DNA from: an uncultured virus (IMG/VR IMGVR_UViG_3300020037_001477)
Taxonomy: Duplodnaviria; Heunggongvirae; Uroviricota; Caudoviricetes
Length of the DNA stretch: 20,000 bases
IMG/VR virus record: IMGVR_UViG_3300020037_001477
Strand: one strand, 5' to 3'
Part shown: one piece after another, positions 5,030-19,879 of the stretch
Layout: each line of letters opens with the position of its first letter
Position numbering within the stretch: position 1 is the first letter of the stretch
Program-made: the position numbers and the translations under genes
The notes under the pieces: generated by a model
What the model saw: only the letters and a program-made list of their open reading frames with translations
What the model was told of the DNA's origin: nothing
Databases searched by the model: none

Positions 5030-5067
5030 CACCCCCTCCCCCGGTCTACGCTCCAGGGGAGGGGGTG
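5030..5067. promoter_or_regulatory. GC-rich inverted repeat (hairpin) upstream of polA
   Basis: CACCCCCTCCCC (5030-5041) pairs perfectly with GGGGAGGGGGTG (5056-5067). On the minus-strand RNA it extends by one G-U and two more pairs. No U-tract follows. Confidence 0.65.
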
Positions 5068-5080
5068 CGCTCGACTGCCG

Positions 5081-5110
5081 GCGTCTAGGTGCCTGAACTC
5101 ACCTAGACGC
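5081..5110. promoter_or_regulatory. 11-bp perfect inverted repeat overlapping the stop codon of the SSB-like gene
   Basis: GCGTCTAGGTG (5081-5091), 8-nt loop, CACCTAGACGC (5100-5110). Confidence 0.65.
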
Positions 5111-6470
5111 TGCCGTCCCCGAGCGCCGCGTCGACCGCCGCGCCGGCCACGGCGGGGGCATCCGGCGCGGTGCCGGCGGGGGCGGCGGCAGGAGGCCGTC
5201 GCGGATGGCCACGGCGCGCGACCGGGGGAGCCCCGGCGGGAGCCGCCTGGGCGGGCGCAGGAGCGGCCTGGACCGGCGGGGGTGCCGCAGGTACCGGTGC
5301 CGGCGCAGGCGCAGCCACGGGCGCAGGGGCGGGCGCGGCCGGGGCCTGCTGGCCGTAGTCCACCACGGCGGTCGGGGCCGGGCCGGCGGGCACCGACTGG
5401 ACCGGCGGCGGGGCCTGGACCGGCGGCGCACCGGCTGCGACAAAACGACGCACCGGGGGAGCCATCGGCTGGGCCACCGCAGGGGCCGGCTGGGCACCGC
5501 CGAACTGCCGCGCCGGCTGCGGGGCCTGGACCTGCGGCGCGGCGACCGGGGCCGGCTGCTGGGGCGGGATCGTGCTAGGCCCCTCCCACGACGGCGGCGC
5601 GGCCTGCGGCTGGGGAGCCGCGTAGACCGGTGCCGGCGCGGCGACCGGGGCCGGCGCACCGCCGAACTGGCGCGGCGGCTGCGGCGCGGGTGCCGCGTAG
5701 ACCTGCGCCGTGGGAGCCGGCGGGGCGTAGGCCGGTGCCGGCGCGGCCGGCGGGGCGTAGGGCTGGCGCTGCACCTGCGGAGCCGGCGTCGGCTGATGGT
5801 TGATCGCCGCGCGCATGGTCGGCGGCAGCGAGACGCCGTAGCCTTCCATGAGCGCAATCGCCGAAAGCTCGTCCATCCACTGCGTGACGTCGAACACCGG
5901 GTAGGGCGTCGGGCCGTACTGCTTGTGGACGTAGGTGTCGGTGGTCGCGCGCACAATGATCTGCTCGCTCTCGGCGTGTCCCGTCTTGAGACCGGTCGAG
6001 TAGTCGCGCAGCAGCTTGGAGACAGCGTTCAACCCGCCCGTGCTCGACGAGATGAACATGCCGAAGATCGCCTCCTGCACCGGAGCCGAGGGGTCGGGCA
6101 GAATGAGCAACTCCAGCTTGACCGACTTCTGCCAGCCGTCGTTCTGCTTCGAGTACGGGCCGTGGTCAGGCAGCGACGTCTTCTCGGGGATGCGCTCGCC
6201 GGCCGAGTACCAGCGATCCTCGATGCACTGGCTGTTGCGCCAGCATTGCCAGCCGTACACCACGTTCTGGAGGTTCGGCATGAAGTAGAACTCGTTGTTG
6301 GGGAACTGCAAGCCCTCGCGGCCGAGCAGCCACCAACCCTTCTGAAACTTCACGTACTGCACGCCAGCGCTGCCAATGGCCGCAGCGGCGGCTTCAAGCT
6401 GCCGGACGTAGTCCGACTTCTGGTTCGGGTCGACAATCGCGGTACCCGGTCGATGTCCGATGTTCGTCAT
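5103..6470 (-). CDS. Putative phage single-stranded DNA-binding protein with a long Pro/Ala/Gln-rich tail
   Basis: N-terminal ~220 aa contain 'YVKFQKGWW', 'GWQCW', 'DGWQ', 'SSSTGGLNAV' and 'YVHKQYG..P.PVF.V..W', a pattern I associate with phage SSB-like proteins. Sits between nuclease and polA. The C-terminal half is low complexity. Confidence 0.65.
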   Translation of the reverse strand: MTNIGHRPGTAIVDPNQKSDYVRQLEAAAAAIGSAGVQYVKFQKGWWLLGREGLQFPNNEFYFMPNLQNVVYGWQCWRNSQCIEDRWYSAGERIPEKTSLPDHGPYSKQNDGWQKSVKLELLILPDPSAPVQEAIFGMFISSSTGGLNAVSKLLRDYSTGLKTGHAESEQIIVRATTDTYVHKQYGPTPYPVFDVTQWMDELSAIALMEGYGVSLPPTMRAAINHQPTPAPQVQRQPYAPPAAPAPAYAPPAPTAQVYAAPAPQPPRQFGGAPAPVAAPAPVYAAPQPQAAPPSWEGPSTIPPQQPAPVAAPQVQAPQPARQFGGAQPAPAVAQPMAPPVRRFVAAGAPPVQAPPPVQSVPAGPAPTAVVDYGQQAPAAPAPAPVAAPAPAPVPAAPPPVQAAPAPAQAAPAGAPPVARRGHPRRPPAAAPAGTAPDAPAVAGAAVDAALGDGSV

Positions 6471-7843: not shown

Positions 7844-9663
7844 GGTGTATCTCCCTGAAGCTGTGCTTTCGCGAGCGCGAGTTCGTCGGCGATGATGCCG
7901 ACCATGTTCTGTGTCTCCGCGCCGGGGTTGAGGACGGCGAGCGCGACGGCGTTCTTCTGCTGAAGACGAGACGCGAGACGCTCTTCGATGGTCGAGCCGC
8001 ACACCACGTAGGTGTAGGTGCAAGGCTTCGTCTGCCCTCGGCGATGGATACGATCTTCCATCTGATCCATCTTGTGCGGGCTCCAGTCGAGTTCGACCAC
8101 GAGCATGTTCGACGACGCCGTGAACTCGTAGCTCTCGCCCCCCGTGTCGATGGTGGTGAAGAGCACGCGGTAGACGCCGGCCTGGAACTCCTGGATCAGC
8201 TTGTCTCGCTTCGCCATCGGCGTGTCACCGTGGATCACAGCGACGGCGACCGTATCCTCGGGCTGCTGCACGGCCTTCTGGTCTACCGGGTTGTCATCGT
8301 CGGTGTCGTCGCCGATAGCTGCGGCCAGATCGTCAGCTACCCACTTGTGCTTGGTGAAGACGACGAGCGGCTCGTTGCGGTCGGTGCTCTCGATGTAGTC
8401 CTTGATCCACGCGACGGTCGCCGACATCTTGGCCTTCGCCGTGATCTGCATCAGCGCGTTCATCTTCGGCAGGATCGTAAGCGTGTTCATCGGATTGCCG
8501 GTGGCCATGCTCGTCCAGTGATCGACGATCTCGTCTTCGACCTCCTGGTACTCGGCAGCCTGCTCCGCATCCATAGGCACGATCATCGTCTCGTAGGACT
8601 TGGCCGGCAGGAACTTCAGCACGTCGCTCTTCAAGCGGCGGAAGACGTAAGGCGCGATCTCGGCGCTCAACTTCGACAAGTTACTCGCGCCGCTGAAGTC
8701 GTAGCCGAAGCCGTTGTACTTCATGTCGCAATACTGCCGGGCGTAGCGAATGAAGTTGCCCCACTTGGTGGCGTCGATCATGTTGAGGATCGGCCACAGC
8801 GACGCAGGCCGTCCGATCAGCGGCGTGCCGGACATGGGCATGAAGTATTTGCAGCGCAGAGAGAGCCAGCGCAGCGCCTTCGTGCGGCGCGCATTCTGGT
8901 TCTTGGCGCGGTGGCACTCGTCGGCGAAGAGCGTCACGAAGGGGAAGTCCTTGCCGGCCTTGTCGGCCAGCTTGTAGGCGGAGGCCCAGCCGACCAGCAA
9001 CACGCCGTTGGTCGAGGCGACCCAATCGCGCGGGCCGAACTGGTCGATGCCGTAGAGGTAGACCGGACGATCCGGGTTCACCTTTTTCCAGTCGCGGCGG
9101 AACTTCAGCAGCATGCCCTCGGGCAGCACGCCGATGGCGCGTTCGTTAGGCGCGGTGTTCTCGGTGAAGAAGATCGCGGCGTAGGTCTTGCCGAGCCCTC
9201 GGTCCCAGGCGAGAAGCCCGCGTCCGCCATTGGCCAGGAGTTGAGACAGGTCATCGACCTGATAAGGATCGAGAGACACGTCCGGCGTCTGGGTCAGGGT
9301 GAGAGACAGCCGGGTCTTGGGGGCGACCTGCACACCGTGGTCGGCCTGGGCGTCTGCGATCCTGGCCTGGGTTATGTCGTCGACATCGACACGCATCGCC
9401 GACGTCTGCCCTACCTGGATCAAGCGCAGCAGGCACGCGACCTGCGCCGCTTCGAGCGACGGGTCGCCGGACCACACGAACCACCAGCACTTGTTGTCGG
9501 GGTTCCAGCGTGCGCTAGGGATGGACCGGAGTACGTCCAGCAGCGCCGGACTGTACGGCGTGCGAACCTCGCAAACCGGCGGCGTGCTCTTGGTGGTGGA
9601 GATGGAGAAGCCCGAAGGGCGTGCTGCGTTGAACGCGGCGGACAGGGGGGACGGGGCTGGCAT
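7840..9663 (-). CDS. SNF2-family (SMARCAL1/HARP-like) helicase/translocase
   Basis: Motif I DRGLGKT, motif II DECH, motif III SGTP, motif VI QMEDRIHRRGQ. N-terminal 'PYSPALLDVLRSIPSARWNPDNKCWWF' resembles a HARP domain. Confidence 0.9.
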   Translation of the reverse strand: MPAPSPLSAAFNAARPSGFSISTTKSTPPVCEVRTPYSPALLDVLRSIPSARWNPDNKCWWFVWSGDPSLEAAQVACLLRLIQVGQTSAMRVDVDDITQARIADAQADHGVQVAPKTRLSLTLTQTPDVSLDPYQVDDLSQLLANGGRGLLAWDRGLGKTYAAIFFTENTAPNERAIGVLPEGMLLKFRRDWKKVNPDRPVYLYGIDQFGPRDWVASTNGVLLVGWASAYKLADKAGKDFPFVTLFADECHRAKNQNARRTKALRWLSLRCKYFMPMSGTPLIGRPASLWPILNMIDATKWGNFIRYARQYCDMKYNGFGYDFSGASNLSKLSAEIAPYVFRRLKSDVLKFLPAKSYETMIVPMDAEQAAEYQEVEDEIVDHWTSMATGNPMNTLTILPKMNALMQITAKAKMSATVAWIKDYIESTDRNEPLVVFTKHKWVADDLAAAIGDDTDDDNPVDQKAVQQPEDTVAVAVIHGDTPMAKRDKLIQEFQAGVYRVLFTTIDTGGESYEFTASSNMLVVELDWSPHKMDQMEDRIHRRGQTKPCTYTYVVCGSTIEERLASRLQQKNAVALAVLNPGAETQNMVGIIADELALAKAQLQGDTP

Positions 9664-9700
9664 GGTCTAGTTCCTGTTTACCTGTTTGATCGCGGGCAGG

Positions 9701-9729
9701 ACTTTATTCCCCCTGTCGATCTCGGTCAA
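9701..9729 (-). promoter_or_regulatory. Sigma70-type promoter for the leftward replication operon
   Basis: Minus strand TTGACC (9729-9724), 17-nt spacer, TAAAGT (9706-9701), ending 38 nt upstream of the helicase ATG. Confidence 0.7.
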
Positions 9730-9730
9730 G

Positions 9731-9760
9731 AAAAAACCCCCGGCTTTGTGGGCCGGGGGT
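9731..9760 (-). terminator. Intrinsic terminator (minus strand)
   Basis: ACCCCCGGC-CCACAAA-GCCGGGGGT followed by TTTTTCTT: a 9-bp GC-rich stem plus U-tract. Confidence 0.8.
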
Positions 9761-9789
9761 GAGTGGGAGGAAACCCTCCTGAACTAGAC
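9731..9789 (-). ncRNA. Candidate ~59-nt small RNA (or attenuated leader)
   Basis: Bounded by a near-consensus promoter (9824-9796) and an intrinsic terminator (9760-9731). No AUG-initiated ORF inside. Internal GGAGG/CCUCC hairpin. Confidence 0.55.
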
Positions 9790-9795
9790 GCTGGC

Positions 9796-9824
9796 ATTGT
9801 ATTCCAGGCTGTTGCTTTCAGCAA
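9796..9824 (-). promoter_or_regulatory. Sigma70-type promoter driving the candidate sRNA
   Basis: Minus strand TTGCTG (9824-9819), 17-nt spacer, TACAAT (9801-9796). Predicted +1 is G at 9789, preceded by C. Confidence 0.65.
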
Positions 9825-9838
9825 GCCTCTGGTATCCT
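9812..9838 (+). promoter_or_regulatory. Possible rightward promoter for the primase
   Basis: Extended -10 TGgTATCCT (9830-9838) with TTGCTT at 9812-9817 (short 15-nt spacer). An alternative -10, TATGAT, lies at 9859-9864. Confidence 0.4.
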
Positions 9839-9891
9839 GGCCGGCTCATAGATCGCCCTATGATGGGGTGGTCGCGCCATGCGGGGAAACC

Positions 9892-12636
9892 ATGACGTTC
9901 CAACTAGACCAGAAGGCGGTCGTCGCCTTTCTGCGCACGATCACACCGCCGAACAAGGCGGGCTCTCTCGCCATCATCTCGCGCCCGACCGACGCCAACC
10001 TGAAGATCGCAGAGGATGCGCTAGCTGCGGGGGAGAAACGCGGCGGGTTCATCTACAAAGAGACCACGCGGCAGTTTGCCGGCAACGATCCGAACGGTCT
10101 CACCAATCTGATCACGCTGCTCAACGAGCGCAACGGCATCGCGCACATCTCAGCGCGCATGGGCCGCATCAAGATCGGATCGCCGACAGCGAAGCTCGAC
10201 AATATCGAGCAGGTCGGTGCGCTCTGGATCGACATCGACGCCAAGAAAATGGCACCGACGTTCTACCCCGATCCTGACACAGCGGTGCAGTGCGCGGTCG
10301 ACGCGCTGCTGGAGTTCGAGTTGCCGCCAACGATGATCGTCTTCACTGGTGGCGGCGTGCATGCCTATTGGAAGCTGAGCCAGGGTGCAGGCCCGGCGGC
10401 GCTATCCGTGATCGAGACGTGCAACCGCGCGCTGGTGAACCTGTTCACCGCTGACGACACGCCTGCGATCATGAAGGCGAACGCGGCGATGCGTATCCCT
10501 GGCACGATCAACTGCAAGTACGGGATCGTGACGGAGATCGTGCATCACGACGAGACCGCGATCTACGATCTAGGCGACACGGCGAACTTCCTAGCTCAGC
10601 CGCGTGACGCGCTCGCCTTCGGCCCTGGTCTCATGACGCTGAAGGACACGCTTGATCGGTTGTCCGGCAAGCAACTCACGCCGGCCGCGCTATACCAGCG
10701 CGCGGCTGCGCAGGTCGGGGCGCGCGGCGGCAAGACCGATGAAGAGTGGGAAGAGATCATCGGTCGCATCGCTCTGCCTGGGCACCGCAACAGCGCATGG
10801 GCAACGGTGTGCGGCAAGCTGGCGCAGGAAGGCTTGTCTCCTGACCAGATGGTTGGCTGGTACGCGCAGGAGTACGAGCAGCAGGCGAAGGCCTACCCCG
10901 GCACGCGCGAGCCGCTGCCTCCGATGGAAGTAGTCGCGACAGCGGATAGCGTGTGGAAGAGCCACCAGTCTTCGCGGCGGGAGACCGACGCTCGCCACCC
11001 TACACAGGCCCCCGCGTCCGCATCGGATGCAGGGGCGGAAGAACCGGAGCCGGAAGCAGAGACAATAGCGCTGGACCCTGTGTCGACATCCAATCCGTTT
11101 GGCAGCGCGTCCGTCTCAACGCGAGCGCGCGTCGAGGACATCGAGAAGAACGTCAAGAAGGCGCAGCGAAAGCAGCACATCCTGCGGGCGTTCGTTGATG
11201 GCGTCGTGTCGTTCTTCGATCCTGGCCGCAACGGCAGGCTGATCGAGAGCGAAGAACTCTTCTGGGTTTGCGATCTGACATCCAACGTCTGGTCGTCGAA
11301 GACCCACGACGCCATGGCGCGCGTCATCAACGACTTCATCACCTACGGCGTTGGTGCCGTCGCCAGCGCGGCGGTGGTCAACGAGGTCAGGTTGATGCTG
11401 AAGAACAAGACGCACCAGACCGTGGTGCCGTGGAACAGTGGCGCGGGCAAGCATGCGGTGGTGTTCTCGAACAACATCGTGATCGACCTGAACACGATGA
11501 ACGAGTTGACGCTGACCCCCGATATGTACGTGCAGGATCGTCACAAGATGGCGTGGCCGTGGGAGCCCGGCGCGCAGTGCCCGTTGTGGAATAAGGCGCT
11601 CGCCGACACCTTCGCGCACATCCCTGCTGCTGATCAGCCCGGCGTGCTCGACACGATTGAAGAGTGGATGGGGACGATCCTGATTGGCAGGCACAAGCCG
11701 CGCGAGATTGCCAAGGCCATGGTGTTCTTCGGTCCTGAGTTGACCGGCAAGTCCACGGTGATCGACGTGTGTCGGCGAATGTTGGGAGACAGCAAAAGCT
11801 CGTCGCTCAAGCCCAGCGATCTAGGCGGCGACCATAGTCTCAGCGAGCTAGCTCAATCCATCGCTTGGCTGGTCGACGAAATCCCCTCCGCCGGCAAGCT
11901 CGAAGACAACATCTTCAAGCAACTCGTCACCAACGAACCGGTGCAGATCAACCCGAAGTACGTCGCCGCCTACACGAAGCGCCTGGACTTGACCATCGGG
12001 TTCGCCGGCAACAACCTCCCGATCATCACCGACCCGACGATGGCCACGCTGAGCCGCATCATCTGGGTGCCGTGCCTAACGCAGTTCTTCCCGAACAACC
12101 CAAACACGAACCCAACCCTGATCGACGATCTGGAGAAGGAAGCCGCTGGCATCGTGCAGCAGGTGGCCTGGGCAGCGAACCGCGTGCTGCTGCGCGGCCG
12201 GTTCGATCTGCCGCCTGTGTTGATGCAGGAACAGGAGAAGATCAAGGTTGTCTCCAACCCGATGCACGACTACCTGAAGCAGGCGATCAGGCCGAACCCG
12301 AAGGTCTCGATCAAGGTGCGCGATCTCCTGGCTGGCTACCTTGGGTACCGCGCCATGATCCGGGGCACTGTCTCTAAGAAGCTGATCCACGAGCGAGACA
12401 CGACGACCGATGTCCTCGGGCGTGTGCTGAGCACCATGGTCCCGTCAGCGATCTCCAGCCAGAGCGGGGGGCAAGGCGTGTGGATCGGGGTGGAGTGGAG
12501 CGACAACGGTCTCGGGTGGGTGCTGCATGGGGACGGGATGTTCGATCACCCGACCTATGGAAGCTCTCCGCAAGCTGCGAAGAGCGCCAACATGGCAGCA
12601 CCCCCCGGCACCGTCCTGCCTTTCGCGAGGCCTTAG
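9892..12636 (+). CDS. Primase-helicase fusion: RepB-type AEP primase, PriCT-like domain, D5/P4-type SF3 helicase
   Basis: AEP motifs 'WIDID', 'TGGGVHAYW' and 'MRIPGTIN'; 'GHRNSAW...GKL' is PriCT-like; SF3 motifs 'GPELTGKS', 'LVDE' and 'AGNN'. ATG at 9892 follows GGGGAA, so the ORF-track start at 9763 is rejected. Confidence 0.9.
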   Translation: MTFQLDQKAVVAFLRTITPPNKAGSLAIISRPTDANLKIAEDALAAGEKRGGFIYKETTRQFAGNDPNGLTNLITLLNERNGIAHISARMGRIKIGSPTAKLDNIEQVGALWIDIDAKKMAPTFYPDPDTAVQCAVDALLEFELPPTMIVFTGGGVHAYWKLSQGAGPAALSVIETCNRALVNLFTADDTPAIMKANAAMRIPGTINCKYGIVTEIVHHDETAIYDLGDTANFLAQPRDALAFGPGLMTLKDTLDRLSGKQLTPAALYQRAAAQVGARGGKTDEEWEEIIGRIALPGHRNSAWATVCGKLAQEGLSPDQMVGWYAQEYEQQAKAYPGTREPLPPMEVVATADSVWKSHQSSRRETDARHPTQAPASASDAGAEEPEPEAETIALDPVSTSNPFGSASVSTRARVEDIEKNVKKAQRKQHILRAFVDGVVSFFDPGRNGRLIESEELFWVCDLTSNVWSSKTHDAMARVINDFITYGVGAVASAAVVNEVRLMLKNKTHQTVVPWNSGAGKHAVVFSNNIVIDLNTMNELTLTPDMYVQDRHKMAWPWEPGAQCPLWNKALADTFAHIPAADQPGVLDTIEEWMGTILIGRHKPREIAKAMVFFGPELTGKSTVIDVCRRMLGDSKSSSLKPSDLGGDHSLSELAQSIAWLVDEIPSAGKLEDNIFKQLVTNEPVQINPKYVAAYTKRLDLTIGFAGNNLPIITDPTMATLSRIIWVPCLTQFFPNNPNTNPTLIDDLEKEAAGIVQQVAWAANRVLLRGRFDLPPVLMQEQEKIKVVSNPMHDYLKQAIRPNPKVSIKVRDLLAGYLGYRAMIRGTVSKKLIHERDTTTDVLGRVLSTMVPSAISSQSGGQGVWIGVEWSDNGLGWVLHGDGMFDHPTYGSSPQAAKSANMAAPPGTVLPFARP

Positions 12637-12902
12637 ATCATCAGGCTCTTCGGCGGGGTGTAGTCGTCAGCGCCCCGCCGCTTGGCCATGAAGGATCGCG
12701 GGAGTTTCTTCCCGTAGACCTTCTCCAGATAGGCAGTCATGACCAGCGCGCTAAACACGCCGACCGGCATGTTCGCACGCTTGGCCTGGGCCGTGAGATG
12801 CGCCGCCGTCTTCAACGGCATCCGCATCATGATCGGGCGTGCAGCCCCGGCCACCAAGTTCTGCACGCCATCCTTCGTGTTGTTTCGCTTCAGCTTCGGC
12901 AC
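12633..12902 (-). CDS. Ribbon-helix-helix (Arc/CopG-like) DNA-binding protein
   Basis: AAGGAG SD with GTG start. 'PIMMRMPLKTAAHLTAQAKRANMPVGVFSALVMTAYL' fits the strand-helix-helix pattern. Confidence 0.6.
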   Translation of the reverse strand: MPKLKRNNTKDGVQNLVAGAARPIMMRMPLKTAAHLTAQAKRANMPVGVFSALVMTAYLEKVYGKKLPRSFMAKRRGADDYTPPKSLMI

Positions 12903-12905
12903 GGT

Positions 12906-13649
12906 CTACTCCTTCTTCTCCTGGTTGGTGGGGGCCTGCTGCATGCCGGGCATCGTCGTGAACCCGGCCGGCGCAACGCCCGCCGACAGCCCTTGCAGAT
13001 AGCGGCGGGTGTCGGTGTACAGGCGAGTGCTGGGCGTGTTGGCGAGCTTCTCCAGCGCCTTCCGCCGCAGCCAGTTGGCTTGGTTGGGGTCGAGCATGCG
13101 GAAGGTCTGCACGTTCGCCATCGACTGCGACAGCAGATCGTTGAAGCGGAACATCTTGATGGGCTCGTCCATCGGGATGTTGTGCCAGATGCGCAGCAGC
13201 GTGAAGCCGATCATCTGGCGCTGGAACTCGTCGGCCCGTCCCTGGTCCGACATATCGAGCAGCTTGCCGGCGAGCGCGGAGAACACCGCGACCGCATGGA
13301 TGAAGCTGCCGTAGCTGTGCTGATACTTCGACGTGAGGTCGGTGAACAGCAGCAGCGCGCCGGCAAGATCGTTGATCGACGAGGCGCGCCGGTACCACTC
13401 GTCGATGATCATCGCGTCATCATCGGGCACGATGATCTGGCCCTTGTCGTTCTTCTGGAAGGGCGTGATCTTCTCCGCCATGTTGACGGGCTCGGTCTGG
13501 CGCGGCTGCTCAACCAGCGTGGCAACCGGAGCCACGACAGGCGGGGGCGGCGCGTCAGCAGGAGCTTCCGTGAGCTTCACGCGGGTAGCCCGCCGCCGGT
13601 TCAGCGCCTTGCTGACTTCGTTGGGGGACGGGGTCTTACGAGAGGCCAT
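12906..13649 (-). CDS. Hypothetical protein (247 aa)
   Basis: GGAG SD with ATG, strong codon bias, tight packing with neighbours. Confidence 0.75.
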   Translation of the reverse strand: MASRKTPSPNEVSKALNRRRATRVKLTEAPADAPPPPVVAPVATLVEQPRQTEPVNMAEKITPFQKNDKGQIIVPDDDAMIIDEWYRRASSINDLAGALLLFTDLTSKYQHSYGSFIHAVAVFSALAGKLLDMSDQGRADEFQRQMIGFTLLRIWHNIPMDEPIKMFRFNDLLSQSMANVQTFRMLDPNQANWLRRKALEKLANTPSTRLYTDTRRYLQGLSAGVAPAGFTTMPGMQQAPTNQEKKE

Positions 13650-18224: not shown

Positions 18225-18414
18225 TGTCTAGCTCCTGTTGGATGTTGGCGTGGATCATCTCTTTGATGACCTTGGCGATGGCGCATCGCCGGGCGCTGGC
18301 TGTTCGGACAAGCCAGTCGTGCTGGGTCTTCGTGAACTCGATGCTGTACTGCACCGAGTTTCTCTCGGACGCCTTGAAGTAGGTGCCCTTCGGGGCGGTG
18401 CTGTGGTTGGCCAC
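18160..18414 (-). CDS. Ribbon-helix-helix DNA-binding protein
   Basis: 'VQYSIEFTKTQHDWLVRTASARRCAIAKVIKEMI' fits the RHH pattern. GTG lies 2 nt after the upstream stop. Confidence 0.6.
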   Translation of the reverse strand: MANHSTAPKGTYFKASERNSVQYSIEFTKTQHDWLVRTASARRCAIAKVIKEMIHANIQQELDNAVRTIPGDASGQRTEAELHT

Positions 18415-19863: not shown

Positions 19864-19879
19864 GGTCTAGTCCTCTTTC

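Follow-up and report, generated by a model that had tools for sequence, protein, structure and literature searches.

An uncultured phage carries a compact predicted transcription unit in the gap between its divergently oriented helicase and primase genes. We propose that the product is a trans-acting small RNA (sRNA) of 59 nt which likely acts, through base pairing, as a translational repressor of the early regulon of the phage itself, a reading drawn from sequence comparison to which we assign a probability of roughly 0.68. The original prediction had described a stand-alone sRNA belonging to the replication module and working by base pairing. The sRNA part of that description is strengthened by a compensatory change in seed and target and by a layout kept across the phage family, but its scope was drawn too narrowly, as the predicted targets extend across the early region.

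The window, by which we mean the whole 20,000-nt stretch analysed, forms the final 20 kb of a phage record that is complete at 66,106 bp, has a GC content of 63% and carries direct terminal repeats; the record is present in wastewater, sludge, freshwater and soil runs. The flanking genes are divergent, as had been called: an SNF2-family helicase on the minus strand (ORF 9663-7840) and, on the plus strand, a primase containing a D5-like helicase domain. The primase ATG at 9892 is consistent with its homologues, and a plus-strand frame open from 9763 begins upstream of this homologue-supported start. An upstream ORF of 11 codons (9860-9895, plus strand) overlaps the primase start through ATGA; in the close relative L004 the counterpart of its ATG is in frame with the primase. 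The helicase leader carries an AAACAGG tandem repeat (9674-9687, minus strand) that is invariant in L004, and a similar AAACAGG is found in the helicase leader of the more distant G003. Blastn of the region gave no cultured phage match, protein matches are below 60%, and the nearest cultured phage by capsid, at 45%, is CRP-810 (accessible part of PMC11288001). A tyrosine integrase was not found in the complete genome, which does contain two weak HTH-like genes. The region set at genome 28996-38076 and 23101-23511 (L007, L008) encodes a 3026-aa virion-region protein and, among structural genes, a 136-aa HlyC-family acyltransferase-like protein.

Every letter that had been listed for the unit is present on the minus strand. 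P1, the predicted sigma70-type promoter of the sRNA (9796-9824), comprises TTGCTG (9824-9819), a 17-nt spacer and TACAAT (9801-9796), followed by the G at 9789; it scores 8/12, below the 9/12 cut-off of the promoter scan, and is one of only 7 sites of at least 8/12 with TTG..TAnnnT in the 66-kb genome. The 59-mer, which runs from a predicted +1 at 9789 to a predicted 3' end at 9731, has a folding energy of -27.9 kcal/mol (z -4.9). It begins with a 5' seed, GUCUAGUUC (9781-9789), complementary to GAACUAGAC, with bases 1-4 and 8-10 unpaired and bases 5-7 only about 40% unpaired, the latter being open in L004. Hairpin 1, GGAGG-GUUU-CCUCC (9766-9779), had originally been written with an AGGAGG arm; the five GGAGG/CCUCC pairs stand, and the leading A is unpaired. 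It had also been said to hide an anti-Shine-Dalgarno (anti-SD) sequence, CCUCCC; in the window's clade the best fit for this hairpin is the SD and spacer of the primase, to which its GGUUUCCUC part is complementary. The intrinsic terminator (9731-9760) was recovered by a terminator scan, with a stem at 9760-9736 of nine pairs, eight of them G-C, and a U run to 9731; it is one of two hairpin-plus-U sites that a genome-wide script detects. Directly after the U run the promoter scan likewise recovered P2, TTGACC-17-TAAAGT (9729-9701), the predicted promoter of the helicase operon. A likely extended -10 of the divergent primase promoter (TG-n-TATCCT, 9830-9838, plus strand; TGG-TATCTT in L004), read by eye, would abut the -35 of P1. 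A contig from an RNA run covers 9612-9797, extending 8 nt beyond the predicted +1; it may be DNA, and it shows neither ends nor strand.

The unit thus has, by sequence prediction, the features of a trans-encoded sRNA: a stand-alone promoter and intrinsic terminator, a non-coding length within 50-500 nt, a U tail and an accessible seed complementary to several mRNAs encoded elsewhere. The Rfam/Infernal search that had been suggested gave it no family. Covariance models of Rfam 15 (c4, isrK, suhB and others) returned 0 hits at the gathering threshold in the window and seven related loci, with a best score of 24 bits against the 50 needed, and sub-threshold matches were rejected as an identity, as they reflect the terminator.

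The complement of the seed, GGA(n)CUAGAC, lies between the SD and AUG of early-strand genes. It is found at 7 of the 29 starts on the early (helicase) strand compared with 0 of 35 others, and CTAGAC is reversed at 0 of 64 starts. CTAGAC occurs 13 times, on both genome strands, and seven of these copies stand 6-8 nt before a start codon, directly after GGA. The corresponding starts are at genome positions 8168, 7390 (CobS-like AAA) and 5859 (CobT-like vWA) and at window positions 2796, 9663 (helicase), 18224 and 19863, four of the genes being uncharacterised. Within the window, all on the minus strand, the helicase site is GAACUAGAC (9665-9673), with 9 nt of seed complementarity between SD and AUG; GGACUAGAC precedes both a 134-aa gene (2797-2808) and a 141-aa gene (19864-19875), and GGAGCUAGAC a 189-aa gene (18225-18236). 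At the first of these the TAG is also the polA stop. Stop-codon coupling was rejected as the source of TAG in the motif, since it accounts for 1 of the 7 sites. A weaker candidate, GGAGUAGAC (12903-12912), precedes an 89-aa gene starting at 12902 (duplex -8.4 kcal/mol; rank 6 of 64 for the whole RNA).

Scored by energy, seed duplexes of -10 kcal/mol or below form at 7 of 29 early-strand starts and 0 of 34 others, against a background of 62 in 33,046 windows. This start set consists of our own gene calls, from which five weak ones were removed and in which two starts were corrected manually, and a second self-trained gene caller picked the two corrected starts unaided. Only 37 genomic 9-mers match at least six starts over 7 nt, of which 24 are copies of the motif and 13 generic anti-SD words. 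The three non-consensus sites carry A to G opposite a seed U, which may be tolerated through G-U wobble, G also being favoured in SD regions. AACTAGAC occurs three times in the window (0.12 expected), always at the helicase-primase hub: before the helicase AUG, in the template of the RNA 5' end and in primase codons 4-6. CUAG is rare in the genome (66 seen, 223 expected), so the motif would be a private address.

For the primase we predict a bipartite mRNA target (9883-9909, plus strand) made up of GGGGAAACC in the SD and spacer, the AUG at 9892 and UUCCAACUAGAC in codons 3-6. Co-folding gives about 21 bp of predicted pairing there, at -11.8 kcal/mol and rank 4 of 64 starts, with CobS at rank 1 and CobT at rank 5; the helicase site nets only -5.4 kcal/mol once target folding is counted. 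The strand bias of whole-RNA binding is significant in only 3 of 7 genomes. In the polA leader (5030-5113, minus strand) there are two strong hairpins. Segments of the 5' region of the sRNA recur in the first, one arm of which contains CUAGAC; the SD and GUG are sequestered in the second, with a seed-like site, GGAGCGUAGAC, in and beside its loop.

Comparison with L004, whose helicase is 69% identical to that of the window, provides a direct link between seed and target. This phage keeps the -35 region (TTGCTT), a TAnnnT box 17 nt on (TAGGGT), TCTAGTTCAG and P2 (TTGAC and TAAAGT), in the same layout with a 64-nt RNA. Hairpin 1 is retained with new letters around an invariant GUUUCC, and the primase leader GGGGAAACCAUG is likewise invariant. 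The terminator keeps its stem and has a new loop, and in a third relative, seen in contig pieces only, the terminator arms are kept with a UUCG loop. In L004 the seed starts GAUCUAGU and the helicase site is ACUAGAUC, so that the first base of the seed has gone from G to A, the site from C to U, and a G-C pair has become A-U. The cognate duplexes for the window and L004 reach -13.7 and -14.2 kcal/mol, compared with -11.3 and -9.8 when crossed. In the one readable close relative this direct covariation comes down to one base pair at one gene, and together with a lineage-specific match it amounts to few independent events. The primase coding site AACUAGAC is not conserved in L004, and the L004 RNA has no cognate preference at the primase (-8.3 vs -8.4). 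Searches for further close relatives found the window phage only (IMG/VR scans with the primase, the helicase, the CobS-like protein and the terminator pattern), no match (GTDB scan with the helicase) or 119 loci with no close relatives among them (start-motif pattern search).

More distant relatives were collected with a terminase profile search, which gave 80 loci. Of a further set of 80 helicase loci, 12 have the divergent primase; the other 68 were left out, except L231. Six syntenic long records (G001, G003, G004, G005, G006 and G008) have divergent primase and helicase genes, with terminases 49-55% and capsids 56-68% identical to those of the window phage. Relatives that keep the gene pair and lose the layout had been named as evidence against the sRNA; all six keep a terminated hairpin-plus-U unit, reading towards the helicase, with a promoter-like site after it; five of these units were flagged by the script and that of G005 was seen on folding. 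Marine-type loci, 14 of 14 (12 distinct), have a hairpin with CUCCC, a linker UCCUGU(C)AGUCU and a terminator. In a 13-row alignment (11 distinct) all 8 pairs of the terminator stem have changed on both sides and 88 of 88 cells are paired, while the hairpin-1 stem has a lineage-specific sequence and forms in each, the CUCCC motif and linker being kept.

Five of the six, all marine, share the seed CCUGU(C)AGUCU, different from that of the window, and its complement lies at their own early starts. The window seed matches 6 of 29 of its own starts (0.12 expected) and 0-1 starts in each of the six relatives, whereas the G005 linker matches 8 of 22 of its own (0.83 expected) and 1 of 29 in the window; marine linkers in general match 0-1 of the 29 window starts, and CTAGAC is not enriched as a start motif in marine relatives. 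The complement of the own linker is at 4 of 16 early starts in G001 and 3 of 16 in G003. In G004 and G008 the cognate 7-mer is not significantly enriched (2 of 29 each, reached by 320 and 336 of 2000 shuffles), and the counts there for GACAGA (7 of 29 and 6 of 29) use a motif picked after the data were seen. Target enrichment is therefore weak in three of the six relatives, the third being G006, in which a regulon-wide start motif was not found. G006 has instead a distinct 108-nt unit of four hairpins (G006 9915-10363, L212). Two of its segments can pair with the leader of the primase (9 nt, rank 1 of 72), and one with that of the helicase (7 nt, not significant). In G003 the whole RNA ranks the helicase 1 and the primase 2 of 49 starts, and in G006 the primase 1 of 72. 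Across the family the recurring targets are CobS, CobT, helicase, primase, polA and integrase.

Marine motifs mostly lie 20-40 nt upstream of the AUG, before the SD, and the RNA order is CUCCC (anti-SD) and then seed; in the window the motif is downstream of the SD and the RNA order is seed and then CCUCC. The order of modules mirrors that of the targets in both lineages, as antiparallel pairing predicts. Because the marine lineages inherited one common seed, the number of independent seed states is about three. R1, a model of the marine RNAs, finds a held-out marine locus (L231) at E = 1.7e-18, matches the window weakly at 9750-9784 (10 bits, E = 1.1) and has no significant match in CRP-810. 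The comparison establishes the window unit as a counterpart of the marine RNAs by position rather than by sequence homology.

The same motif distribution might be explained by a protein, which would bind it as a DNA operator or stoperator-like element or as a RegA-like translational-repressor site, with the unit an insulating terminator carrying an inverted copy by chance. Three copies do cluster in the control region, the genome has its two weak HTH-like genes, marine ACAGAC occurs as tandem repeats and inside the P2 spacer (in G001, G004 and G008, where it is DNA only), and all sites of one protein would drift together too. We consider this unlikely, as the seven start sites are all on the sense strand 6-8 nt before AUG, several of them inside operons, with none of 64 reversed, and the sole free antisense copy sits unpaired at the predicted +1. 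Variant sites fit G-U wobble, the hairpin and linker of the unit are conserved as RNA structure, and the G006 unit, made of unrelated letters, likewise complements both leaders. Equally unlikely, in our estimate, is that the RNA does pair with these targets and serves immunity or lysogeny control, or stabilises or activates some of them, instead of timing lytic shut-down. Of five relatives tested, three encode an integrase, and for RNA binding the integrase start comes fifth in G001, third in G005 and second in G004; yet the window's complete genome has kept the system while carrying no detectable tyrosine integrase. Also in favour, the polA SD of the window is sequestered by a hairpin with a seed-like site in its loop; against it, pairing from SD to AUG normally blocks initiation.

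It had also been suggested that the unit is an attenuator read through by antitermination. As a cis-acting leader it would let the 5' end pair with the helicase ribosome binding site of the same transcript upon read-through, and a 129-nt read-through fold does pair the seed with the helicase site over 9 bp, at the one gene where a covarying pair is seen. The terminator is intact in that fold, however, and in 8 of 8 units tested the best terminator-free fold is 17-27 kcal/mol worse. P2 directly follows the terminator, relatives also have a second promoter there, six other sites are 7-20 kb distant, and the opposite strand carries the primase site. We regard this explanation as very improbable, at about half the likelihood of either of the preceding two. 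The transcription-attenuator class was rejected in the absence of a competing antiterminator (-27.9 vs -8.3 kcal/mol without the terminator for the window unit). So was the class of cis-encoded antisense RNAs (OOP, sar), as the unit lies outside both predicted mRNAs and the longest perfect runs are 9 and 8 bp.

Taking the trans-acting sRNA as the preferred reading, we envisage that early in infection host RNA polymerase would transcribe it, starting from P1. Its free seed would pair over 9 bp across the SD-AUG spacer of the helicase, CobS-like, CobT-like and four uncharacterised genes, and thereby block 30S loading. On the primase mRNA the seed may act as a toehold in codons 4-6, after which hairpin 1 would unzip and pair with the SD and spacer. 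As sRNA and targets share the early promoter hub, the sRNA would accumulate and, after a delay, hold back the output of early and replication genes, while its terminator may also insulate P2. Repression is suggested here by the position of the sites, and transcription, pairing in vivo and timing are likewise inferred.

A wider hypothesis, which we offer tentatively and hold to be less probable than its converse, is that this phage family runs an RNA-addressed regulon. One hub sRNA with a seed and an anti-SD module would recognise matching private start addresses; seed, module order and addresses would be rewritten together between lineages; and the system would time the early-to-late switch, or lysogeny in temperate members, with no protein repressor. 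The same logic could explain orphan start motifs such as the start-associated sequence (SAS) of cluster K mycobacteriophages, and makes the question of what binds SAS testable. If true, control of a phage's early regulon by its own RNA, through an address that the start codons have in common, would add a new layer to temporal regulation, such regulons should be findable by computation in other phages, and the unit would offer a compact, orthogonal translational switch. A further start-associated motif, GGAGGACUAG or GGAACUAGAC, precedes at least five ATGs within 6 kb of an unrelated viral contig (L042, 45% GC).

Among known systems, the c4 RNA of P1/P7 and the CI RNA of P4 are trans-acting phage RNAs that silence lytic or replication functions through short complementary segments. 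The window unit resembles them in its predicted trans-acting pairing; processing from a leader, action on a single operon and the conferring of immunity are features of c4 and CI, and the window unit has no Rfam match. Cluster K SAS is an asymmetric motif at the ribosome binding sites of non-structural genes, its partner being given as unknown and one reversed copy being reported in K1 phages (accessible parts of PMC3203893 and PMC11373665). In the right 35 kb of Adephagia (JF704105) we count 16 forward SAS copies and a single reversed one, in the loop of a long hairpin in the gene 92-93 gap (L315 33655-33725; z -4.7); this hairpin, on the strand of the SAS-bearing mRNAs, is a candidate anti-SAS RNA. 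The right 36 kb of Pixie has 18 forward and 0 reversed. Membership of SAS itself was rejected for our motif, GGA(n)CTAGAC, which does not follow the 13-bp GGGATAGGAGCCC consensus; it differs in sequence and belongs to an unrelated phage, and here a promoter-terminator unit contains the reversed copy, which covaries with its targets.

The phage sRNAs in the literature covered target one overlapping phage gene or mainly host genes, and a search restricted largely to papers available without subscription found no title or abstract start describing a phage sRNA for an own-gene regulon. OOP and aQ of lambda and sar of P22, the last of which blocks translation initiation, resemble the window unit, as predicted here, in having their own promoter and terminator and repressing a phage gene (accessible part of PMC12197685). 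They are, however, cis-encoded against one overlapping gene, whereas the window unit overlaps no target transcript and has at least eight predicted targets. Closer are the trans-encoded sRNAs, including the phage RNAs PreS (lambda) and VpdS (VP882), which share with it a short seed, several targets with a common complementary motif and a U-tailed terminator. According to the accessible parts of bioRxiv 10.1101/2024.10.31.621285 and PMC12197685, the targets of PreS are mainly genes of the host, and VpdS acts on mRNAs of both host and phage; unlike in these, the motif that the window unit is predicted to read is part of the early gene starts of the phage itself and changes along with the seed within the family.
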